Assembly: GCA_963734535.1 (NCBI GenBank) | Contig: CAVTHS010000014.1 | Coordinates: forward strand, 192,001 to 256,000 | DNA from: an uncultured Chloroflexia bacterium | Lineage (GTDB): Bacteria; Chloroflexota; Limnocylindria; Limnocylindrales; CSP1-4 | Direction of reading: 5' to 3' | Length of the DNA: 64,000 nt | Shown: positions 42,618-55,273 of the stretch, one piece after another | Numbering within the stretch: position 1 is the stretch's first letter | Layout: every line of letters starts with the position of its first letter | Position numbers and translations under genes: made by a program | The notes under the pieces: model-generated | What the model saw: only the letters and a program-made list of their open reading frames with translations | What the model was told of the DNA's origin: nothing | Database searches by the model: none

Positions 42618-44042
42618 CTAGAAGACGAAGCCGAAGAGCCCGGGCGGCAGGTGAATCCCCTGCACCTCGAACTTCTCGACGAACTTGGGACGGATCCCCG
42701 TCGGCTTCAGGCGACCCTGGATCTTGCCCTCGACGACGCCCGTCTGCTCGAAGACGAAGACATCCTGCATCACGATCACGTCACCTTCCATCCCCTGGAC
42801 CTCGGTGATGTTCGTGATCCGCCGCGTTCCGTCCTTGAGCCGGGCCTGGTGCACGATGAGGTCGACGGCCGACGAAACCTGTTCGCGAATGGCACGCAGC
42901 GGGAGATCCACGCCGGCCATCAGGACCATCGTCTCCAGGCGCGACAGCATGTCGCGCGGGCTGTTGGCGTGGCCGGTGGACATCGAGCCGTCGTGGCCCG
43001 TGTTCATGGCCTGGAGCATGTCCAGGGCCTCGCCGGAGCGGCACTCTCCCACGATGATCCGGTCGGGCCGCATCCGGAGCGCGTTCCGGACCAGCTCGCG
43101 GATCGGGATCTGGCCCTTGCCCTCGATGTTCGGGGGGCGGGACTCCAGCGTGACCACGTGCTCCTGGCGAAGCTGCAGCTCGGCCGCGTCCTCGATCGTG
43201 ATGATCCGCTCGTCGTTCGGGATGAACGAGGAGAGCACGTTGAGCGTGGTGGTCTTGCCGGAGCCGGTCCCGCCGGAGACGAAGATGTTGAGTCGAGCCT
43301 CGACGCAGGCCTTGAGGAAGTCGAACATGTCCGGGGTTGCCGTGCCGAACCGGATCAGGTCGTCCACCGTGAACGGGGACGCGGCGAACTTCCGGATGGT
43401 GACGACCGGGCCAACCAGGGAGAGGGGAGGGATGATTGCGTTGACGCGGGATCCGTCGGTCAGCCGCGCATCGACCATCGGGCTCGACTCGTCCACGCGG
43501 CGGCCGATCGGGGCGATGATCCGGTCGATGATCCGCATGACGTGGTCGTCGTTCTGGAACACGACGTTCGTCAGCTCCAGCTTGCCGCTCCGCTCGATGT
43601 AGACCTGGCGCGGGCCGTTGACCATCACCTCGGTGATGGTCTCGTCGCGCAGGAGCGGCTCCAGCGGGCCAAGGCCGATGATCTCGTCGGTGATCTGCTC
43701 CAGCATCCGGACCCGCTCGGCGCGGGTGAGGGCCAGGCCCTCCTCGTCGATGACCTTGCCGAAGATCTCCTCGATCTGGCGCCGAACCTCGACCTGGTTG
43801 GAGAGGTCGAGCTTGGGGTCCAGGTCCTGGATGACCCGCGACTGGATCCGGAACTTGACGTCGCGGAAGGACTCGCGCACCGGCGCCGACGACATGAGGC
43901 GCTGGCTGCTGGGCGCGGCGGCCGGGGGCGCGGTGGGCTGCCCTCCACCCGGTCCCCCCGCGGGAGAGCCGGCGGGCGCGGCCGGCGTCACGGGTCCTGT
44001 TCCCCCGGGCCTCGCACTCTCGATTCGCTTCAGCAGGGACAT
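42618..44042 (-). CDS. cpaF: Tad pilus assembly ATPase CpaF/TadA
   Basis: GLGPLEPLL, SGGTGSGKTT, LRMRPDRIIVGE, MNTGHDGS. Confidence 0.96.
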   Translation of the reverse strand: MSLLKRIESARPGGTGPVTPAAPAGSPAGGPGGGQPTAPPAAAPSSQRLMSSAPVRESFRDVKFRIQSRVIQDLDPKLDLSNQVEVRRQIEEIFGKVIDEEGLALTRAERVRMLEQITDEIIGLGPLEPLLRDETITEVMVNGPRQVYIERSGKLELTNVVFQNDDHVMRIIDRIIAPIGRRVDESSPMVDARLTDGSRVNAIIPPLSLVGPVVTIRKFAASPFTVDDLIRFGTATPDMFDFLKACVEARLNIFVSGGTGSGKTTTLNVLSSFIPNDERIITIEDAAELQLRQEHVVTLESRPPNIEGKGQIPIRELVRNALRMRPDRIIVGECRSGEALDMLQAMNTGHDGSMSTGHANSPRDMLSRLETMVLMAGVDLPLRAIREQVSSAVDLIVHQARLKDGTRRITNITEVQGMEGDVIVMQDVFVFEQTGVVEGKIQGRLKPTGIRPKFVEKFEVQGIHLPPGLFGFVF

Positions 44043-44088
44043 TGTCCAACCACCCCTTCAGCCCCCGAGGGGACGAAATCCGGCGTTC

Positions 44089-45330
44089 CTAGCGCCATGC
44101 GAACAGCGACTTTCGCGGAGCCTGCTTGCGGGCCCCGTCGCGTACCTTCTCCGGCTCCCCGGTCAGCGTCCGGGCCAGGCGAAGGATGTCCTGCGAGACC
44201 TGCGCCTCGCGGTTGCTCAGGAAGAACGGTACTCCCCGGTTGAGCGCATACACAACACTCCGGCCGTCGCTGACGACCGTGTGGTCCACCTTGCGGCCGA
44301 TCGAGTGCTCCACGTCCGCGACGCGGATCCCCAGGGCGGAATCCGCCCGGTTGAGGACCAGCTGCACCTTGTCCGCCGGGTAGCCCAGCTGGTCGGAGAC
44401 CTCGAGGAAGAGCCGCAGGTTCTTGATGCTCGTGATCTCGAGCGTCAGGACGGTCAGGATGGTGTCGGCGATGTCGAGGATGGCCAGCGTGGCGTCGCTG
44501 AACGACGACGCACAATCGACGACCACGAGGTCGTAGCGGCCGCGGAGCACCTCGAGGACCCGCTTGGCAGCCGACGGCGTCACGGTCTCGGCCAGCTCCG
44601 GCGAGGGTGGGGCCAGGAGCACCTTGAGGCCCGACGAGTGGGTCATCAGGAAGGTGTCGAGCAATTCGGGCTCACCGCCCGCTTCGAGCTCGGGCACCAG
44701 GTCGGCGATCGACTTGTTCTTCGGGTTGAGGTTGAGCAGCACCCCGACGTCGCCGAACTGGAACGAGCCGTCGACCAGGGCGACCCGGCTGCCGGGCTCG
44801 GACGCGGCCGCGACCGCAACGTTCACGGCGATCGTGGTCCGGCCCACGCCGCCCTTCGGCGAGAACACGGCCACGATCCGTCCCGGCTCGTGGGCCGCTG
44901 CCGCTGCCCGGGCGACGAGCGCCGCCGGTGCGCCGTACCGCACCCGCTTCTCGTGCTCGCGGAGGTGGACCTGGCGAATCGACGCCGTCAGCTCGTCGGA
45001 GCTGAAGGGCTTGACCAGGAATTCGCGGGCCCCCGCCAGCATGGACCGCCGGAGATAGTCCGCCTCGCCCTGGACGGACATCATCACGATCGCGGTGGTG
45101 GGGACCTGCGCGGAGAGCAGCTCCGTCGCGGTGATCCCGTCCATGTCCGGCATGTTGATATCCATCAGGACCACATCGGGCTGGAGCGCGGCGGCCATCT
45201 GGAGCGCCTCTGCGCCGGACGCCGCGGCTCCCACGACCTCGACGTCCTTCTCGAAGCCAAGCAGCTTCGTCAGGTGGTCGCGCGTCTCCGGGATGTCGTC
45301 GACGATCAGGACGCGGATCTGGTCACTCAT
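44089..45330 (-). CDS. cpaE: CpaE/TadZ: receiver domain plus MinD-like ATPase
   Basis: VLIVDD..LMDINMP..KP receiver; SPKGGVGRTT; position before cpaF. Confidence 0.9.
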   Translation of the reverse strand: MSDQIRVLIVDDIPETRDHLTKLLGFEKDVEVVGAAASGAEALQMAAALQPDVVLMDINMPDMDGITATELLSAQVPTTAIVMMSVQGEADYLRRSMLAGAREFLVKPFSSDELTASIRQVHLREHEKRVRYGAPAALVARAAAAAHEPGRIVAVFSPKGGVGRTTIAVNVAVAAASEPGSRVALVDGSFQFGDVGVLLNLNPKNKSIADLVPELEAGGEPELLDTFLMTHSSGLKVLLAPPSPELAETVTPSAAKRVLEVLRGRYDLVVVDCASSFSDATLAILDIADTILTVLTLEITSIKNLRLFLEVSDQLGYPADKVQLVLNRADSALGIRVADVEHSIGRKVDHTVVSDGRSVVYALNRGVPFFLSNREAQVSQDILRLARTLTGEPEKVRDGARKQAPRKSLFAWR

Positions 45331-45449
45331 GCGATGGCCGGTGCGGTTCCTTCGGATGCTGTGGTTGGGTCACGGGTCGTTGTGGATCAGGGTCGGAGAT
45401 GAAGGGCGGTCCGATCGGGCCGCCGCTCATCCTGGCGAGCGCTGAACGA

Positions 45450-46344
45450 TCAGGGCTGTTCGGTGAGGATGATCTTCGGCGGAATGACGCCGTAGCTGTC
45501 GACGAGCTGGCGCAGCGTGATGCCCGTCGTCTTGACCGCCGGTGCGTCCTTGTCCTTCGGCGATCGGAGGACCAGGGACAGGTTGCCGTCCAGCTGGGTG
45601 AACCGGGCCAGCGACTCCGCCTGCTGGGCCGTCAGTGCCAGGATCACGATCTGCGCCTGGCCGTCGAGGCGGTCGTGGCTTCCGGTGTCGTCCCGGTCGT
45701 TCCCTGCGCCGCGCCCTGCTGGGCCACCGGCGGCGGCAGGATGGTGCCGACCACCTGCACGTTCTGCACCAGGACCTTGACGGTCGTGCTGTTGAGAAGG
45801 TGTTCACGGTGGCGAAATTGCGCACGGTGGACGGAGGCTCACCCTCCTTCGTGGGGGCCTTCTCCACGACGACCGGGTTCTTGGTTGGGTCGTTCATCGA
45901 GAGGACGACGTCCACGCGGTCGCCCGGCTTGATCAGCGTGCCGACGCCGGAGACCTGGTCCACCTGGACCGACACGCCGCCGAGCCCGGGATCAAGGAGC
46001 TGCGCCACGTCGACGAGGGACGCGGCGGCGCTGAACGTCGAGGTGGAGATGTAGCCCCCGGACGTCACGTCCGTGCGGACGATCTTGCCGATGACCGCCT
46101 CCGGCAGTGCGAACGAATCCGCCGGCTTGTCGGCGATCGGGACGTCCTTGGTTGCCACCATCGCTCCGGTGATGGTGGTGCCCAGCGGGATGTCCTGGGC
46201 CGCAACCACGATCTTGGCCGTGGTGGGCTCGGCGGGCGTGCCAGTGCCCGAGGTGCCGTTGTTGGTGAGGAGGATCACCCCCACGAAGGCGACCACGGCC
46301 AGGAACAGGCCGATCAGCAGGATGAGCCGGTTGCTCCGCTTCAA
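45450..46344 (-). CDS. cpaB: Flp pilus assembly protein CpaB/RcpC (frameshifts ~45665-45795)
   Basis: N-terminal TM, SAF domain VVAAQDIP.GT, GVGTLIKPGDRVDV, LSLVLRS. Confidence 0.88.
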
Positions 46345-46503
46345 GGTTCTTCTCCCAGGTCTGCCGGGTGACAGGTGGCACCACTGTAGCATCGTGCAAA
46401 GGCGGCGCGACTATACGAAAGGCCTAGGACCACTAGGAGGAAATGGTCGGAAATCGCTCAGCGATGCCACCCGAAGGAGCGTCGGCTCGGGATCGGGCCG
46501 TCG

Positions 46504-46956: not shown

Positions 46957-47127
46957 TCAGAGAGAGTTCCCGAGCGTGCTCAGGGTCTTGCTGATCTGTC
47001 CGCCCATGAAAAGCAAAGCGACGATCGAAAGGATCGCGATCAGCGCGAGGATCAGCGCGTACTCGGCAAGGCCCTGGCCCTCGTCATCGAGGCGCAGCCA
47101 CGCCCAGATCGAGCTGATGAGTGGCAT
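46957..47127 (-). CDS. flp: Flp pilin (copy B)
   Basis: MPLISSIWAWLRLDDEG|QGLAEYALILALIAILSIVALLF. Confidence 0.92.
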   Translation of the reverse strand: MPLISSIWAWLRLDDEGQGLAEYALILALIAILSIVALLFMGGQISKTLSTLGNSL

Positions 47128-47282
47128 AGGCTCATCTCCCTGGATGATTGCGGCGCCCCACAATTCGGGGCGAACCAAGACTACCCGATCGGTTTGCGAG
47201 GATTCCACTGGCCAAAGGTCCCGATTGCCGTCGGTCACCATGGGCCTTTTGCCTCCGGGTCCGTCGCCGGGCGGCGGGCCGA

Positions 47283-47453
47283 CTAGATCGACTTGCCGAC
47301 GGTGCTCAGGACCTTGCTGACCTGGCCGCCGAGGAAGATGAGGGCGACGATCGCGAGGATCGCGATCAGGGCGAGGATCAGGGCGTACTCCGCGAGTCCC
47401 TGGCCCTCCTCGTCGGAATGGAGCCACGTGTAGATCGAGCTGATGAGTGCCAC
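47283..47453 (-). CDS. flp: Flp pilin (copy C)
   Basis: MALISSIYTWLHSDEEG|QGLAEYALILAL; mature part nearly identical to copy A. Confidence 0.92.
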   Translation of the reverse strand: MALISSIYTWLHSDEEGQGLAEYALILALIAILAIVALIFLGGQVSKVLSTVGKSI

Positions 47454-47596
47454 GGCTACGACTCCCTTGTGACCGCCTGGATGATTGCGCCCCTGATAGG
47501 TCGGGGCCAACGCGGAGTGTGCACTCCTGCGCAACGGCGGACCAATAGTCCATAAGTACTTACGGGTGGGCACACAGGCAGGGATCGTGGCTTCCC

Positions 47597-47758
47597 TCAG
47601 CCCGACTTGTCGATCTCCGTGCCGATGAGGCTCAGCGCCCAGGCGATCTGCGGCTCGAAGAAGAGCAGCGCGATGACCGCGATGATCACGACGAGGGCGA
47701 GGATCAGGGCATACTCCACGATCCCCTGGCCCGCGTTGGCAACCGGCGCCCGCTTCAT
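47597..47758 (-). CDS. Divergent Flp-like pilin (copy D, 53 aa, absent from ORF track)
   Basis: Manual translation MKRAPVANAG|QGIVEYALILALVVIIAVIALLFFEPQIAWALSLIGTEIDKSG*; ATGA overlap with upstream kinase stop. Confidence 0.85.
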   Translation of the reverse strand: MKRAPVANAGQGIVEYALILALVVIIAVIALLFFEPQIAWALSLIGTEIDKSG

Positions 47759-48951
47759 CCCTCGTCGGCGGCGGATGCCTCGTCGGCCGTCGGCGGGATC
47801 GGGACCACGACCTCGATGGTCTGCCCGTCGGCGGCCACGCCGACGCGGCCCCCCAGCGCCGTGGCGCGGTCCGTGATCTCGCGCCGGACCTCGGCCGGCA
47901 CGCCGCCCGCGGCGACGACGGCCGCGCGATCGGCGCGCCGCGTCTCGATCATCGTCACGAGCGCGGCCGGCACGTCGGCGGCGGGCGCGGGAAGCACCGG
48001 CTCCTCGTCGCGCGACGCGATGTGCGCCCGGACGGTGGTCGTCAGCTCGGTGGCGCCCCAGAACAGGGTGACCGTGACGCGCTCCGGGCGGGTCGCGGTG
48101 AGGGCCGTGACCGACTCGTCGACGATGCGGAAGACGGCGCTCTCCAGCTCCATCGGGAGCCGTCGCTCCGGGCCCAGCGAGTCGAACTCCACCGGGACCT
48201 GGGCGCGCCTGCTGCGGTCGCGAGCCACCCGTCGGAGCGTCGGGACGAGGCCCAGGTCGTCGAGCACCATCGGACGGACGTCGAAGATGAACGTCTTCGT
48301 CGTGTCGAGCGTGCGCTGGACCATGCCCACCAGCTCGTGAACCTCCGCGCGGGCAGCCGCCGGATCGCGGTCGATCAGCCGCTCCACGATCTGCGCCTGG
48401 AGGACGATGTTGGTCAGGCTCTGGGCGGGACCGTCGTGCATCGCACGCGAGATGTCGCGACGAAGGTCCTCGAGCGCCGACTGCAGGACGCGGTACATCG
48501 ATGCCGATGCGATCCCGGCTCCCGCGGCCGCGGGGGTGCCGGGCGTTCCGGGCGCCGCCGACCCGGCGGCCGCGGGCGCGACCCGCGCAGGTTCCAGGCC
48601 CGCGAGCGTGGCCACCTCGCCGCGCAGGTTCGCCAGGCCGTCGCGGTAGCGCATCAGGACCTTCTGCTTGCCCTGCAGGACCTCGATCTGGGCGTCCATG
48701 AGCGCGAATCGCTTGGTGAGCGTGACGAGCTGGGCGTTCTGTTCCGCGATCTCGGCCCGGTCCGCGCCCGGCGTGGCGATCAGGGCAGAGAGCTTCTCCG
48801 CGAGGTGGGCGCGCTTCTGCTCGTGGCGGCCGGACTCGCTGCGGGCCTGCCCGGCCAGGAGATCGATCTCGGAAAGCTCGCGCTCCAGGCCCGCGACCTC
48901 ACGGTCGAGAGCCGCCGCGAGGTCGGCAGGGGTGCGCGCGGGCTCCGTCAT
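47755..48951 (-). CDS. DegS-like cytoplasmic HisKA_3 protein with degenerate ATPase domain (putative pseudokinase)
   Basis: Coiled-coil N-terminus, H-box AMHDGPAQSLTN, RPMVLDDLGL; N, G1 and G2 boxes not recognisable. Confidence 0.75.
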   Translation of the reverse strand: MTEPARTPADLAAALDREVAGLERELSEIDLLAGQARSESGRHEQKRAHLAEKLSALIATPGADRAEIAEQNAQLVTLTKRFALMDAQIEVLQGKQKVLMRYRDGLANLRGEVATLAGLEPARVAPAAAGSAAPGTPGTPAAAGAGIASASMYRVLQSALEDLRRDISRAMHDGPAQSLTNIVLQAQIVERLIDRDPAAARAEVHELVGMVQRTLDTTKTFIFDVRPMVLDDLGLVPTLRRVARDRSRRAQVPVEFDSLGPERRLPMELESAVFRIVDESVTALTATRPERVTVTLFWGATELTTTVRAHIASRDEEPVLPAPAADVPAALVTMIETRRADRAAVVAAGGVPAEVRREITDRATALGGRVGVAADGQTIEVVVPIPPTADEASAADEG

Positions 48952-48962
48952 CCGGTTGAGCG

Positions 48963-49700
48963 TCAGTCCTCCGGCATCCGGATCCAGCCCTGGCGCATGG
49001 CGTAGACCACGGCCTGGGTCCGGTCGTTGACGGAGAGCTTCCGAAGGATGGAGCTCATGTGGTTCTTGACCGTCTGCTCGCTGATCGAGAGCGCGTAGGC
49101 GACCTGCTTGTTGGTCATGCCCTGGGCGATGTTGTCAAGGATCTCCACCTCGCGCGGCGACAGCGGGGCGAAGATCGGGGCCGCCTCCTGGCCGTAGACG
49201 GCCAGCTCCCGGAACTCCTTGAGCACGCGGCTGGCCACGGCCGGCTTGGCGAAGACCTTGTCGTTGATCAGGAACTCGCCGTCGCTCACTCGCCGGATGA
49301 TCGTCACCAGGTCGTCCGGGCCGACGTTCTTGAGGATGAATGCCGCGGCCCCTGCGCGGATCGCCTGGAAGAGCGCCTCCTCGTCCTCGTCGGACGCGAG
49401 GATGATGATCCCGGTCGCGGGCAGGTCCCGCTTGATCCGCTGTGTCGCCTCGATCCCGCCGGGAGCCGGGAGCGAGAGGTCCATCAGGATGATCGCGGGA
49501 TCCGTCTCCAGGGCCGCGTCGTGGGCCGTGCGACCGTCCTCGGCCTCGCCCACGATCTCGAAGTCGGGCTCGCGCTCCAGGATCGCCCGCATGCCGACAC
49601 GGACCAGGGCGTGGTCGTCGACGATCAGGATGCGGATCCGTTCGCCCACCGCGCGCCGGTCGGGGCCGCCCCGCCGACGGTCGGGCCCACCATACGACAT
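48963..49700 (-). CDS. NarL/DegU-family response regulator (REC + LuxR HTH)
   Basis: IVDDH, LMDL, LK; LSPREVEIL..GMTNKQVA..ISEQTVKNHMSSILRKL. Confidence 0.95.
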   Translation of the reverse strand: MSYGGPDRRRGGPDRRAVGERIRILIVDDHALVRVGMRAILEREPDFEIVGEAEDGRTAHDAALETDPAIILMDLSLPAPGGIEATQRIKRDLPATGIIILASDEDEEALFQAIRAGAAAFILKNVGPDDLVTIIRRVSDGEFLINDKVFAKPAVASRVLKEFRELAVYGQEAAPIFAPLSPREVEILDNIAQGMTNKQVAYALSISEQTVKNHMSSILRKLSVNDRTQAVVYAMRQGWIRMPED

Positions 49701-49706
49701 GGACGC

Positions 49707-50781
49707 CTACCTCCTCACGATCCCGACGGGAATGGCGAGCCGGACCACGGTGCCCCCGGACGGGTGGGATCGTACCTCGAAGCGCGCGCCGATCAGCTCC
49801 GCCCGGTCGCGCATGAACTGCAGCCCGAAGCTGCGACGACCGCGGGCGCTCACGGCGTCGATGTCGAAGCCGCGCCCGTCGTCGGTCACCTCCAGCGTCC
49901 ACCCGTCGTCGTCGAGGCGGGTGCTCACTCGCACGACGCTTCGCCTCGGCGTGGCGGCGCACGTTCTGGAGGGCTTCCTGCATGACGCGGAGGACCACCA
50001 CCTGGCCCTCGTCGGAGAGCTGGCTGGCGGGCGCGGCAAGGTCCGTCTCGATCGTGGCGCCGGTGAGCGCACGCATCGTCGCGACGCCGTCCTCGATGGA
50101 TCCATCCAGCCCGAGCTCGGCCAGGAGCGGCGGGCGCAGCTGGGTGATGAAGGCGCGCACGTCGTCCAGCTGGCGGCGCAGGCGCTCCCGCAGGAAGCGA
50201 ATCTCCGCGCGCACGGTGCCCGGATCGGTGTCGAGGACCCGCTCGATGTAGTCGGCCTGGAAGATCGCGTTCACGAGCGCCTGCGCGGGGCCATCGTGGA
50301 CCTCCTGGGCCAGGCGGAGGCGCTCCGCCTCCCGGGCCTCGACCAGCCGCATCCGCAGGTCGTCGGGGAGGTCCGGCGCGGACGGGTCGCCCTGCAGCGT
50401 GGCATCGCCCCGTTCCAGGAAGAGCCACGTACGTTCCAGCCCGCGGACCGCAAGCTCCAGGCGCGAGAGCTCGGTCCCGCGCTCGCCCAGCTCGCTGGCC
50501 CCGAGGGCGACGGTCCGCCGAAGCCCGCCGGAATGGGTCGGTTCGCCGGTGGCCGTTCCATTGCCCGATGTTGCCCCGAGCGCGTCGAGCTCCTCGCGGT
50601 CCAGCTCGTCGTGCTCGGCGTGCCACGACGCGAGGTCCGCGTGGTACGCCTCGCGATACTGCTCGGTGAGGGCGCGCAGCGTGTTGGCGGCATAGCCAAG
50701 CGCGGACTTGGCCTCCGCGTAGACGCTGTCGAAGCGGCCCGTCCCGACATCCCCGGCCCCGATCTCGGCGCTCATCTCCAT
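49707..50781 (-). CDS. DegS-like cytoplasmic sensor histidine kinase (frameshift ~49935)
   Basis: ERLRLAQEVHDGPAQ, QEALQNVRRHA, DDGRGFD, FGLQFMRDRAE; no TM segment. Confidence 0.9.
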
Positions 50782-50798
50782 CGCAGTATACGGGCCGG

Positions 50799-52463
50799 TC
50801 ATGGGCACGCGACCCGGTAGACGGTGAAGTCCGCGGTTCCGGCTGGCGTGCCAGGCGCGGGCGGGAGCGCGACCTGGCGCCAGGCAGCGGGCGTCGGGGT
50901 CCGTCGCGAGGCGGGCCGGCCAGGTGCCGTGCGTCCCGTCCAGGACCACGTAGCGGGCATTGAACGTCCGGGCGATCTCCAGCACGCTCGAGACGGGCTC
51001 GTCCGGGAGCGCCAGGGCGTGGACGCGGTTCGCCTCGGCGACCCAGATCGGGTGGTTGGCGATCACCGGGACGTTCGGGTCCAGCGGATCGCCCAGGGCC
51101 GCGAAGCGGGCTGTCAGCGCCGCGTAGCGCGCCTCCGTCCCGGCGGCGTTGCTGCCGTACGAGGGAATCCCGAGGCCCAGGAAGAGGAGCGCACCCGCGC
51201 CGGCGAAGAGCGGGCCGAGCCACGCAACGGGCCGCGTCCACCCACGTCTCCGCCCGACCCATGCGAGTCCCGGCGTCGAGCACGGCAAGCCCGCTGACGA
51301 TCAGCAGGACGTGCGCCGGCGCCGCCGCGTGGAGGTACGTGCCCCACGTGGTCTGGACGGGGAAGACGAGCGTCGTGATCGCGAACGTCGCCACCGCGGA
51401 GACGACCAGCAGGCGGAGCGCCCGGCAGCGTGCGACCCACGGCAGTCCGGCGAGGCCGACCGCGGCCACGGGAATGCCCGGCAGCACGAGCACGCTCACG
51501 AGGTTGTGCCAGAAGCCGCCGACGCGATCATCCAGCCAGGCGGCCGGGCCTGCGGCCAGGTAGCCGGCCAGGGTCGCCGGCTCCTTCCAGGCGAAGATCT
51601 CGAAGCCGCTGATCGCCCACGCGTTGGTGATGGCCTGTCCCGGCAGCGGGCTGCCGAAGACGATCGCCTGCCGGACCAGCCAGGGCGCGACGACCGCGAT
51701 GGCCACGACGGCCGGCACCAGCACCAGCCGGGCGCGCATCGCCCGGCTCTCCCGGACCGTGCGCCCGTCCGGCCCCTGCCACCAGGCCAGCGCAGCCCAC
51801 GCGAGCGCGATCCAGATCGCCTCGTTCCGGGTCAGCGCGGCCAGGCCGAGCGCCAGCCCGAGTCCGACCAGGCGCGGATCGCGCACCCGGGCGCCGCGGG
51901 GCTCGCGGAGGAGGCGGGTCCCCAGGAGACAGGCGGCCAGCGCCGCGACCCCGAACGGGACCGTCGAGTCCAGCAGTGCCGACGGCAGCACGAGCGGCAG
52001 CACCACCGCGGACACGAGCCCGCTCCCGAGCCCGAGCGTGCGCGCCCGCTCGCCGGACAGCCCGCGCTCGGCCGCAAGATCCGCGCCGATCCGCCAGGCG
52101 AGGACGGGGATCACGGACCCGAGCAGGACCGGCACCGCCAGGGTTGCCGCATACGACGTCGAGCCGAGCAGCAGCATCGGGACCGCGGCGAGGAGCGTCG
52201 GGAGCGGCAGCCAGATCTCGAATGCCGGGCGGGGGAACGAAGAGTCCGAATGTCCCGGTTGCCGCGTCGCGCGCCGGCGTGACATAGCTCCAGAGCGCAT
52301 TGGAGGTGAGCCCGTTGCCGTCGACGAGGTTGCGGGCCGCGCCCCAGTAGTACGTGGCGTCCTCGGGGATCGGAAAGGGCACCTGCGCAGCCGCCCACGC
52401 GCGGACCAGCAGCGCGACGACGAACACGAGCCCGGCGCTCAGCCAGGCCTCCCGGCGGGTCAC
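50799..52463 (-). CDS. GT-C (GT39/PMT-like) membrane glycosyltransferase, frameshifted
   Basis: LLVR..PEDATYY..ARNL..G.G, W.PL, LAALTRNEA, GTYLH; paralog of next gene. Confidence 0.72.
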
Positions 52464-52470
52464 GACACGC

Positions 52471-54159
52471 TCAGGGCAGGCTGCTGGTGCCAGGCCCGGC
52501 GACGGCCGCGCCCGCGCACCGGGGATCGTCCGGCGCGACGCAGACCGGGTAGACGGCGACGTCGACCGCGCCGGGCGGGCGCGCGACACCGTCGGCCGAG
52601 GCAGCTGCGGGCCGGGAGGCCACCGGCGGCCCGATCCACGCGGGCCGGGCGGCGCCGTCGAGGATCGGCGCGACCGCGGAGACCGCGTCGGAGCGCTCCA
52701 GGATCAGCCACCGGACCTGGTAGGCGCGGGCGACCTGCTCGATCGTCGGGAGTGGATCGTTCACGAGGACGACGCCGCCCCGGCCGCTCCAGTAGCGCGT
52801 GCCCGACGCGTCGATCGACATCACGCGGTCCGTGATCGGTGCACCGGCCGCGTCCAGGGCGGCCGCGGCGAACTGGTGGTCGGCGACGCGGCTCGCCCAG
52901 ACCGCGTGCGTCGTCAGCGAGGCAACCGCTGCCGCGACCACGGCGAACGCCACCGCGGCGCCCGAGAAGAACCGCGTCGCCTGGTCCGCGTCCCAGCCCC
53001 GCCGGCGGGCCGCCACCCATCCGACCGACGCGGCGATTCCCTCCATCACGAGCACGTACGAGTGCGGCGCCAGCCCGATCGCCGAGTGGATGAACGTCCC
53101 GCCCGGCACGTGCACGGCGAACACCAGGGCATTGAAGGCGAACAGGATGCCGGCGTAGAGGAATGCCGGCGAGAAGTCCGGCGATCGCCGCCGAGCCCAG
53201 CCGCCGACCAGCATGAACGGGACCAGGATGACGCCCCCCACCAGCACGGCGTAGATGGTCACGGCCGCGACCAGGCCGCCGATCCGGCTCGCGATCAGCG
53301 GGCCCAGCCCCTGCCCAAGGAAGTGGTCCAGCGTGGCGGGGATCGTCAGGCTGTTCCACTCGGAGAACTGCGTGATCAGCAGCACCTTGCCGGTGGACGA
53401 GGACGGCGACAGGCTGCCGAACACCTCGAGCTGGCGGGCGAACCACGGCCCGGCGACCAGCAGGAACAGCCCCGCGCAGGCGACCCCGGCCCACATCGGG
53501 ATCGCCGGCCGCCTGGAGCCGCGGCTCCGCCAGGCTCGCCAGCGGTCGACGAGGAAGAGAAGCCCCAGCGTCACTCCGACCAGGATGCCGTCCGAACGGG
53601 CCAGGGTCGCCAGGCCGACGAGCGCGCCGGCAACGGCGAAGCTCCGGCCGTGACCCTTGAGACCGCGCCCTCCGGCCCAGAGCGCGCCGACCACCAGCGG
53701 CTGGTAGAGCCCGAAGTTGTCGGGCTGGGACATGAACGGGGCCGCGAGGACCGGGATCGCGGTCAGGAGGCCGGCTCCGATGGCCACCCGCTCGCTCGCC
53801 CCGGCGTCGCGCGCCAGCGCCCACGCCATCGGCGCCGAGAGCGCGCCGAGCAGGATGAAGGGCAGCGACGACGCCAGCGCCGTCGGCCCCAGGAGCCAGA
53901 TGAACGGGACCTGGACGATCGACGCCAGCGGCATCCAGTGCGCGTTGGCCGGGATGGGCAGGACCGGGTTGGCGGGGATCTTCCCCCCGACCTCCACGAA
54001 GATCCAGATGAAGTCGATGTTGAACCCGTGTCCCGCCGCCAGGCTCCGCGCGACGTCCACGTAGTAGTACGAGTCGGGGTACGCGGGATCCGGGAAATGC
54101 AGGAACAGGAGCGCCCGGACCGCGACGGCAAGCGCGAAGAGCAGGAATGGCTTCCGCAC
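52471..54159 (-). CDS. GT-C (GT39/PMT-like) membrane glycosyltransferase
   Basis: AVR..YPDSYYYVDVARSLAAGHGF, HWMPL, LATLARSDG, GTFIH. Confidence 0.75.
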   Translation of the reverse strand: MRKPFLLFALAVAVRALLFLHFPDPAYPDSYYYVDVARSLAAGHGFNIDFIWIFVEVGGKIPANPVLPIPANAHWMPLASIVQVPFIWLLGPTALASSLPFILLGALSAPMAWALARDAGASERVAIGAGLLTAIPVLAAPFMSQPDNFGLYQPLVVGALWAGGRGLKGHGRSFAVAGALVGLATLARSDGILVGVTLGLLFLVDRWRAWRSRGSRRPAIPMWAGVACAGLFLLVAGPWFARQLEVFGSLSPSSSTGKVLLITQFSEWNSLTIPATLDHFLGQGLGPLIASRIGGLVAAVTIYAVLVGGVILVPFMLVGGWARRRSPDFSPAFLYAGILFAFNALVFAVHVPGGTFIHSAIGLAPHSYVLVMEGIAASVGWVAARRRGWDADQATRFFSGAAVAFAVVAAAVASLTTHAVWASRVADHQFAAAALDAAGAPITDRVMSIDASGTRYWSGRGGVVLVNDPLPTIEQVARAYQVRWLILERSDAVSAVAPILDGAARPAWIGPPVASRPAAASADGVARPPGAVDVAVYPVCVAPDDPRCAGAAVAGPGTSSLP

Positions 54160-54211
54160 GATGGTGCACGGTAGCACCGGCCAAGCCCGGCAGGGGACCC
54201 GTACGGATGGG

Positions 54212-55273
54212 CTACGCAGCCGCTCCGACAGAAGGCGCTGCCTCGGGCAGTCCCACGCTCGCGCCGGCCGCTCGACGCTCCCGGACCGCGAGGGACGCGA
54301 CCATGATCCCGGCCGCATAGAACGGCAGTGGGTGCGTCGTCGCGATCGGCGAGATCGCCACGAGGACGAGGGCCAGCACCGGGGCGAGCGGCCCAATGGC
54401 CGGCAAGGCCAGCACGAGGGGGAGCGCGCCATAGGTGCCGACGTACGGCGCGAGCAGGATGCCAGACGCCACGGCCCAGGTCAGCCCGACGCGCGCCCCA
54501 CGACGTGCCAGGACAAGGAGGAGGGCCACGAGTGTCACCGCCGCGACCGGCGCCCATAGCGACGGTGCGAGCGCCGTGACTCCGTGGTTCCCTGCGAACG
54601 GCTCGGCATACTGCCCACCCGCCACGAGTGCCTCCGCCCACGCGAAATAGGCCGACGGGCCGGCAATCAGCAGTCCGGCCGCCGTTGCGGCGACGCCTGA
54701 TACAACGGTGCCCGCGAACACGGGCCTTCGGAACACGAGGAGCCAGAGGAGGACCGGCGCCAGCAGCGGCTTGGCGAAGACCGCAGTTGCGACGCCCAGC
54801 AGCACGCCGCTCCGGGGCGTGGACCGCGCAAAGACCGCCACGGCCATCGCCCCAACCAGCAGGACATTCGCGTTTCCGAGCATGACGTCGTGCAGGAACG
54901 GGAGCGAGAAGACCAGCCCGACGACCCCGAGGACTCGGTCCGGTGGCCGCCACCCGGGCGTCAGGGCGCGCACGGCGATCACGGCGAGGACGACCTTGAG
55001 GGCAGCGTAGGCCAGGCTCACGGGAAACGGGTCGAGGAGCGCCAGTGGCCGGCCGACGACCGCGGCCAGCGGTGGATAGAGGAACTTCGGGTCGGTATAC
55101 AGCAATTGGCCCGTCCCGAGGCGCGTGCCCGCATCCACCACGAGGTGCAGGTCAATTGCCCACCAGCTGGGTCCCCGGAGGGACTCGCCGATCCAGCCCG
55201 CCAGCTCGCCGAGGCCGAAGATCGCGAGGAAGGCGACGGTGCCGAACCACGCGAGGCGCATGCGAGCAGACAT
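54212..55273 (-). CDS. GT87/DUF2029-like membrane glycosyltransferase
   Basis: AID..G..LY..FLYPPL, LGNAN, AKP. Confidence 0.8.
   Translation of the reverse strand: MSARMRLAWFGTVAFLAIFGLGELAGWIGESLRGPSWWAIDLHLVVDAGTRLGTGQLLYTDPKFLYPPLAAVVGRPLALLDPFPVSLAYAALKVVLAVIAVRALTPGWRPPDRVLGVVGLVFSLPFLHDVMLGNANVLLVGAMAVAVFARSTPRSGVLLGVATAVFAKPLLAPVLLWLLVFRRPVFAGTVVSGVAATAAGLLIAGPSAYFAWAEALVAGGQYAEPFAGNHGVTALAPSLWAPVAAVTLVALLLVLARRGARVGLTWAVASGILLAPYVGTYGALPLVLALPAIGPLAPVLALVLVAISPIATTHPLPFYAAGIMVASLAVRERRAAGASVGLPEAAPSVGAAA

Follow-up and report, generated by a model that had tools for sequence, protein, structure and literature searches.

What is the role of a short arginine-rich peptide placed ahead of the receiver domain of a response regulator, beside the genes of a Tad/Flp pilus? 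The question is raised by a stretch of 64,000 nucleotides (nt) from an uncultured bacterium of the Chloroflexota, class Limnocylindria (positions 192,001–256,000 of contig CAVTHS010000014.1, assembly GCA_963734535.1), which we will call the window; coordinates are counted from its first nucleotide. The regulator is found on the minus strand at 48963..49700. It has 245 amino acids (aa) with the N-terminus MSYGGPDRRRGGPDRRAVGERIRILIVDDH. Its codons 1–16 are exactly window positions 49653–49700 and code for the peptide MSYGGPDRRRGGPDRR, which has two [DE]RR triplets 7 residues apart. We will call this peptide the tail. Judging from its conserved residues and varied codons, it is translated and under selection at the protein level, and it appears functional by every comparative test that we have run. 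A sensing site for cyclic diguanosine monophosphate (c-di-GMP) is the best single explanation that we can offer, and we offer it tentatively.

The start of the regulator and its tail

The regulator has the two domains of the NarL/FixJ class. Pfam finds a receiver (REC) at the N-terminal side (Response_reg, residues 24–136, E 1.4e-23) and a GerE/LuxR-type helix-turn-helix (HTH) at the C-terminal side (residues 179–234, E 1.4e-22). The phospho-acceptor aspartate and the partner HisKA_3 kinase of this class are also present. The aspartate, D74, is invariant in 50 sequences of family f1, to which the window belongs, and in 24 of family f4. The adjoining gene codes for a kinase with HisKA_3 and HATPase_c, which is frameshifted in the assembly. 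The AlphaFold2 model, calculated from a 54-sequence alignment, is a confident REC-linker-HTH structure with a mean predicted local distance difference test (pLDDT) score of 83.8. Residues 1–15 have a pLDDT below 50 and no secondary structure, which fits the arginine-rich region (ARR) of the Cle proteins discussed below and equally any disordered tail.

The start codon had been proposed in the initial annotation of this DNA from a strong ribosome-binding site, and our comparisons confirm it. On the minus strand, 9 nt separate a Shine-Dalgarno-like GAGGAGG at 49716–49710 from the start codon, ATG at 49700; the kinase gene ends in between, with its TAG at 49709–49707. Of 21 loci of the same genus, 18 have ATG at the aligned start and two have GTG; in the last one a GTG stands one codon upstream. 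A Shine-Dalgarno-like GGAGG is kept before it. A downstream start is rejected: only two of the 21 loci share the GTG which the window has inside the gene (codon 18), and the codons upstream of it are conserved as protein. According to these alignments, codons 1–16 are the true N-terminus of a 245-aa REC and GerE regulator of the NarL/DegU type.

The initial annotation made its proposal depend on the conservation of the extension in orthologues, which is what we find. The pattern [DE]RRRGG[PS][DE]RR is kept in all 44 loci of the same family (the 21 of the same genus and 23 further ones), which were picked by whole-protein similarity and not by the motif. Among 39 unique sequences from this unbiased set, the mean column conservation is 0.949 in residues 7–16, 0.564 in the linker residues 17–21, 0.881 in REC and 0.982 in the HTH. 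By this measure the tail equals the folded domains in conservation. The consensus of the tail is [YF]-x-G-P-[DE]-R-R-R-G-G-P-D-R-R, followed by a variable linker of five residues before the receiver. It contains acids as well as arginines: D/E at position 7, D14 in 97% and E/D20 in 92% of the 39 sequences. Tyr or Phe stands two residues ahead of Gly-Pro in 54 of 56 motif-bearing sequences, the exceptions being His and Glu.

The invariant Arg columns use four to five different codons each; the sequences for this count were selected by the motif, so that only the codon spread counts as evidence. Contigs from two DNA runs differ from the window in the tail region at 49677, 49647 and 49644, always by synonymous changes. 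Residues which are invariant, Arg codons which vary and run differences which are synonymous point to selection on the peptide and not on the RNA. Contigs of two soil metatranscriptome runs (X15 and X16) cover parts of the regulator gene and are 90–99% alike; none of them spans 49665–49715.

Two irregular cases were seen among the loci. In L055, from a metagenome-assembled genome labelled Chloroflexia, the tail is intact and a frameshift directly after it leaves the receiver out of frame, which may be an assembly error or a pseudogene. In genome G005 a near-identical regulator locus is found twice, near the ends of contigs C13 and C12 (L014 and L026), either by duplication or by assembly redundancy.

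Spread of the tail among related genomes

The window has a single copy of the back-translated tandem pattern, and 100 dinucleotide-preserving shuffles have none. In the six frames of the whole genome (3.2 Mb, 71.7% GC) there are 236 stretches with GP[DE][RK]R, three with [YF]xGP[DE][RK]R and two with the tandem form; the other tandem copy is an arginine-rich junk frame. The looser pattern [DE]RR-x-G-x(1,2)-[DE]RR is found 16 times, and all copies except that of the regulator are again in arginine-rich junk frames. The motif is absent from the paralogues examined in the same genus. With all other copies in junk frames and paralogues without it, we reject the motif as a reusable module of this genome.

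When each species was represented by one genome, GP[DE]RRxxGP[DE]RR was found in at least 120 stretches. Among those listed, 16 are in-frame REC-HTH orthologues, one is a frameshifted orthologue and the rest are junk frames; of 12 orthologue records, 11 have Chloroflexota-type labels and one a Gemmatimonadales label. The nearest NarL-type relatives outside the clade begin directly at the receiver. In the literature we have found no description of an N-terminal tail of the GPDRR type on a NarL-type regulator; subscription journals and supplements were outside this search. In a 2025 effector review (PMC12564702) none of the words CleD, arginine-rich, NarL, Tad pil and Chloroflex appears.

An orthologue of the regulator (E<=1e-65) is present in 313 of the 401 genomes of the class; these class-wide tallies include some unpublished genomes, of which no sequence was used. 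It is found in 130 of 137 genomes of family f1, 99 of 153 of f4, 81 of 92 of f3, both genomes of f5 and none of the 16 of f2, which have about 1 Mb. In f1 the tail is conserved over at least 20 genera. The f4 regulators are 72–76% identical to the window protein and have a shorter tail, ERR-x-G-x-DRR, in all 24 published loci; its period is 6 and an acidic extension precedes it. The regulators of f3 and f5 are 55–60% identical to the window protein, and none of the eight has the tail. Seven of these eight have Glu at the phospho-acceptor position, and in the acidic pocket 'DA' replaces 'DD'.

The window shares with two other f1 genomes the gene order kinase, regulator, kinase-like protein, Flp pilins, CpaB, CpaE-like, CpaF, TadB and TadC. 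Two f4 genomes have the same order minus the kinase-like gene. Two f3 genomes have unrelated genes after their kinase, tail-less regulator and kinase-like gene. Where the regulator has the tail, it stands directly upstream of Flp/Tad genes in 5 of 5 genomes (the window, two f1 and two f4); the tail-less f3 regulator does so in 0 of 2. The CpaF orthologues of f3 and f5 are located elsewhere in all five genomes; in one of them CpaF is 459 kb away on the same contig, and no REC-HTH gene of the same strand was seen in the 10 kb upstream of the Tad locus. Taken together, the gene orders of f1, f4 and f3 and the state of D74 indicate that the tail goes with Tad adjacency and with an intact D74. The f3/f5 regulators, which lack the tail, have Glu and lie away from Tad in a triad of kinase, regulator and kinase-like protein, resemble a phosphorylation-independent offshoot.

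A possible site for c-di-GMP and the alternatives

The initial annotation had seen in the tail a tandem YxGPDRR which resembled the c-di-GMP binding region of Cle proteins. What it stated about these proteins agrees with the source: their C-terminal ARR has a tandem [Y/F]xGP[D/E][R/K]R, and 91% of 302 ARR proteins are a single Rec domain with a C-terminal ARR (PMC5677366). A CleD peptide of 36 residues binds two c-di-GMP with a Kd of 108 nM and is unfolded without ligand; the binding is attributed to DRR-x11-(R/K)RxxD (PMC7382256). In this complex D154, R155, R156, R169 and D172 form hydrogen bonds with c-di-GMP, and the outer guanines have Y150 and Y163 stacked against them. An optimised Cle peptide has 177 nM, which becomes 4.4 µM in Y163A and 7.7 µM in G165A; R169A abolishes binding (PMC7382256).

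The Cle peptide is the one c-di-GMP-binding peptide known so far, and the first half of the tail is a good match to it. Its residues Y3, G5, P6, D7, R8, R9 and R10 equal Y150, G152, P153, D154, R155, R156 and R157 of CleD, and it agrees with the repeat pattern in 7 of 7 positions. In the second half G12, P13, R15 and R16 match G165, P166, K168 (as R) and R169; here 6 of 7 positions of the pattern agree, with Arg for Tyr/Phe. Both regions are short, arginine-rich and beside a receiver; the Cle peptide is unfolded without ligand and the tail is predicted to be disordered. Each has a pair of DRR-type triplets and, shortly after the second RR, an acid. Asp is found at position 19 in 13 of the 56 motif-bearing sequences, and Glu one position later in most of them.

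The arrangement is different. As the initial annotation had remarked, the tail is N-terminal; it stands on a REC-HTH factor of the Chloroflexota, whereas the Cle ARR is C-terminal on a single-domain CheY of Alphaproteobacteria. The six residues F158–Y163 of CleD have no counterpart in the tail, nor has the N-terminal beta-hairpin platform (V145/W144 region). The window sequence reads DRR-x5-RR-x-x-G-E and departs from the spacing of DRR-x11-(R/K)RxxD. We collected 27 Cle-type ARRs behind receivers from one genome of Brevundimonas and 40 of the same family; they were selected by the first half-motif, which is thus fixed by construction. The natural spacer in this Caulobacteraceae family is x10–12 in the six of these 27 that were counted, and the alignment needs one single-residue gap there. 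The profile of these ARRs has no significant match with the regulator and so does not support homology with Cle. We regard the tail as an analogue of the Cle ARR in compact form and not as a demonstrable homologue: it shares one Cle half-site and the chemistry of the other half. The match with Cle had been overstated, and the c-di-GMP reading, to which we give less than an even chance, is weaker than the initial annotation implied.

How could such a site work? The tail would be a site of ligand-induced folding for a guanine nucleotide, most likely c-di-GMP. In each [DE]RR the acid would face the Watson-Crick edge of a guanine and the two arginines the Hoogsteen edges, which is the role of D154/R155/R156 in the Cle-derived peptide. 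Conserved acids within an Arg cluster would fit guanine recognition (acid to N1/N2, Arg to O6/N7) better than contacts with a DNA backbone. The connector between the triplets is short, three residues G-G-P, and because of this two regulators could share the ligand between their tails, favouring an active dimer. This sharing may be at least as likely as the wrapping of an intercalated dimer of c-di-GMP by a single peptide, as in CSP1. The regulator would then integrate the phosphorylation of D74 by the adjoining kinase with the level of c-di-GMP, and its dimerisation would switch the transcription of the pilin and Tad genes. A more ambitious version is doubtful: that the twin-[DE]RR tail is a minimal N-terminal c-di-GMP module of 10–14 residues, about half the length of a Cle ARR, that it makes a NarL-type regulator a two-input switch for Tad, that it is the main reader of c-di-GMP for adhesion in this class and that the ligand bridges two tails.

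The genome is well provided with c-di-GMP enzymes. It has 19 GGDEF matches (about 15 domains) and 9 EAL matches (8 domains), and no PilZ match. PilZ is found in one of five relatives, which makes one of six genomes when this one is counted. Many GGDEF/EAL domains, with PilZ in one of six genomes, imply that other receptors must do most of the c-di-GMP reading in this class. An Rfam scan of the window found no family, thus no c-di-GMP riboswitch within it.

A number of results weigh against the c-di-GMP site. The repeat period is 7 instead of 13 in CleD and the spacer x5 instead of x11; the stacking Tyr163 is absent, with Arg10 in its place; the position of D172 is occupied in the window by Gly19, followed by Glu20. 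A hidden Markov model (HMM) of the 27 ARRs gave the regulator 6.1 bits (E=13, rank 52 of 26,697 six-frame open reading frames), with SYGGPDRRR alone aligned. When it was applied to the regulator by itself the score was 3.1 bits and residues 2–10 were aligned. The first 30 residues, used as a phmmer query against the PDB, had no match at E<=10. All 24 tails of f4 lack the Tyr, the Gly-Pro and the following acid. Since f4 keeps ERR-x-G-x-DRR alone, the Cle-like features are not the conserved core. Some representatives of 50%-identity clusters (P0122, P0128, P0130, P0131 and P0229) have degenerate or missing tails. The tail-less f3/f5 genomes also have GGDEF, with 10–15 matches each; the presence of GGDEF is equal in the tail-less families and is rejected as a discriminator of the tail. 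Finally, the association of tail and pilus depends on three families, which correspond to two or three independent events.

Most of the remaining probability is divided among docking, contact with nucleic acid, the binding of a different anion and a latch within the molecule. The tail could be a docking peptide for a protein, with no nucleotide involved; this could be the kinase of the pair, the kinase-like protein, RNA polymerase or a Tad component, for example REC-CpaE or CpaF. Short disordered termini, when conserved, often serve as linear docking motifs, the regulator gene is translationally coupled to the kinase and followed by the kinase-like gene, and the tail accompanies Tad adjacency. 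However, f4 has the tail without the kinase-like gene and f3 the kinase-like gene without the tail, which weakens this protein as an obligate partner, and the AlphaFold2 monomer places the tail against nothing; we consider docking rather unlikely. Five to six arginines in 10 residues would also suit an arm which contacts nucleic acid, either the minor groove or phosphates of DNA or an RNA, and which lengthens or strengthens the contact of the HTH with its operator. Such N-terminal arginine arms directed to the minor groove are known, for example in the TetR-type LuxR of Vibrio (PMC8034623). The two or three conserved acids inside the motif speak against an arm, as do the receiver on which it stands, about 160 residues from the HTH, and the nearest NarL-type relatives outside the clade, which begin without it; we find an arm improbable.

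We assign a small probability to the binding of another anion, such as (p)ppGpp, GTP, cGAMP or polyphosphate, or to an autoinhibitory latch on acidic surfaces of REC or HTH which phosphorylation would release. Pairs of Asp/Glu and Arg would recognise any guanine nucleotide, and the tail co-occurs with an intact D74: this residue is D in 100% of f1 and f4, and E in 7 of 8 of the tail-less f3/f5 regulators. The fold-back which a latch would need is not predicted by AlphaFold2. It is very improbable that the tail has no function, as a leftover of a short duplication or through an effect on the start-codon context or the mRNA. Its halves do resemble a 21-nt duplication, and a genome with 71.7% GC is rich in Gly, Pro, Asp and Arg codons. 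On the other side, the residues are invariant while their codons vary freely, the tail is kept over the f1 genera and in its shorter form over f4, and the adjoining linker is free to vary. The c-di-GMP site remains our preferred reading, with the reservations given above.

Related systems and the other genes of the locus

The DegS-DegU pair of Bacillus subtilis is a two-component system which can be compared with the one described here: both have a HisKA_3 kinase and a NarL-family regulator. DegU is not known to have such an N-terminal tail, and the present system differs by the added kinase-like protein and by its link with Tad. For VpsT, Krasteva et al. 2010 reportedly described a W[F/L/M][T/S]R motif for binding and a dimer bridged by the ligand. 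VpsT also joins a REC with a LuxR-type HTH. It regulates surface and adhesion genes, and the regulator of the window is placed by Tad genes. In both cases c-di-GMP would be a direct input to a factor of the response-regulator type, possibly through dimerisation. The ligand lies on the folded receiver in VpsT, whereas a terminal peptide is proposed here. VpsT is a LuxR/CsgD-type REC-HTH protein of Vibrio cholerae and a direct c-di-GMP sensor with a Kd of 3.2 µM (PMC12564702).

A two-component regulator is also connected with Flp type IVb pili in Pseudomonas aeruginosa, where PprA-PprB controls the flp-tad-rcp locus (PMC3510237); in our case such a link is suggested by gene position. That species belongs to another phylum, and the abstract of the paper reports no arginine tail. 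Short Arg motifs are found in the N-terminal RxxxR 'c-di-GMP switch' of PilZ and in the RxxD I-site of GGDEF (PMC7382256). There a short arginine motif wraps stacked guanines with Arg and Asp as a recognition pair, which is only proposed for the tail. The arginines of the window tail are spaced as RxxxxR, Gly is found at the position of RxxD, and there is neither a PilZ barrel nor a GGDEF fold. A PilZ beta-barrel with RxxxR and [D/N]xSxxG is not present, as Pfam found no PilZ match on the regulator or in the genome. By eye, the f4 form ERRRGGDRR fits RRxxxR.

Receptors of c-di-GMP are notoriously hard to predict from sequence. The class in which this candidate sensor is found is widespread in soil and freshwater, with many GGDEF/EAL domains and almost no PilZ. 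If the reading is true, a shorter and N-terminal natural variant on a transcription factor of the Chloroflexota would widen the recognition rules for c-di-GMP sites. It would also be a second example for peptide-based tools of c-di-GMP sequestration, and a first molecular handle on the coupling of a second messenger with adhesive pili in an abundant uncultured soil lineage. Even without c-di-GMP binding, the tail remains a linear motif under strict conservation, carried by a lineage-wide regulator. The core form in f4, the tail-less family with D74E which is not linked to Tad, the negative profile test and the natural range of spacers in Cle ARRs are new in this work.

The position of the regulator beside Tad/Flp genes, given in the initial annotation, is borne out by Pfam. 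On the minus strand the order is a PMT_2-type glycosyltransferase, the HisKA_3/HATPase_c kinase, the regulator, the kinase-like protein, two Flp-type pilins, CpaB, a REC-ParA/CpaE-like protein and CpaF. Control of the pilus genes by the regulator is suggested by this position only. The kinase upstream of the regulator (49707..51288, minus; Pfam, translation and alignment) has HisKA_3 followed by HATPase_c and is found in two frames; its 5' limit is uncertain. The gene is split by one extra base at about 49938, which is lacking in five orthologous loci, in one contig of run X1 (99% alike, 1,070 bases) and in two contigs of run X2. Judging from these comparisons, the extra base probably arose as an indel in the assembly or as a lesion of this strain. 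Elsewhere in the genome GGDEF/EAL matches are split across adjacent frames (C4:87957-88401, C8:300777-301251 and C9:57938-58643), a hint of further assembly indels. The long N-terminal part of the kinase and the preceding glycosyltransferases of the PMT_2/GT87 type (49135-51288, 52471-54432) form one co-directional block with the pilus genes.

The kinase-like protein (47755..48951, minus) has HisKA_3 only, with no HATPase_c at E<=0.001 in Pfam; the same is observed in two other f1 and two f3 genomes. The two pilin genes of the Flp/Fap type (46957..47573, minus) have Flp_Fap matches which end near 47283 and 46957, with E values of 5e-4 and 6.5e-4, below the curated cut-off; clearer Flp matches are found at the corresponding place in relatives. 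The Tad machinery as listed covers 42618..46392 of the minus strand, with Pfam matches for a CpaB/RcpC-like protein (45427-46392), the REC-ParA/CpaE-like protein (44089-45330) and the CpaF ATPase (42618-44042). The Tad clusters of f4 (L247 and L248) have a further two-component pair, an OmpR-type regulator with a HisKA kinase, right after TadC; in f4 the receiver has 'DG' for 'DD'.

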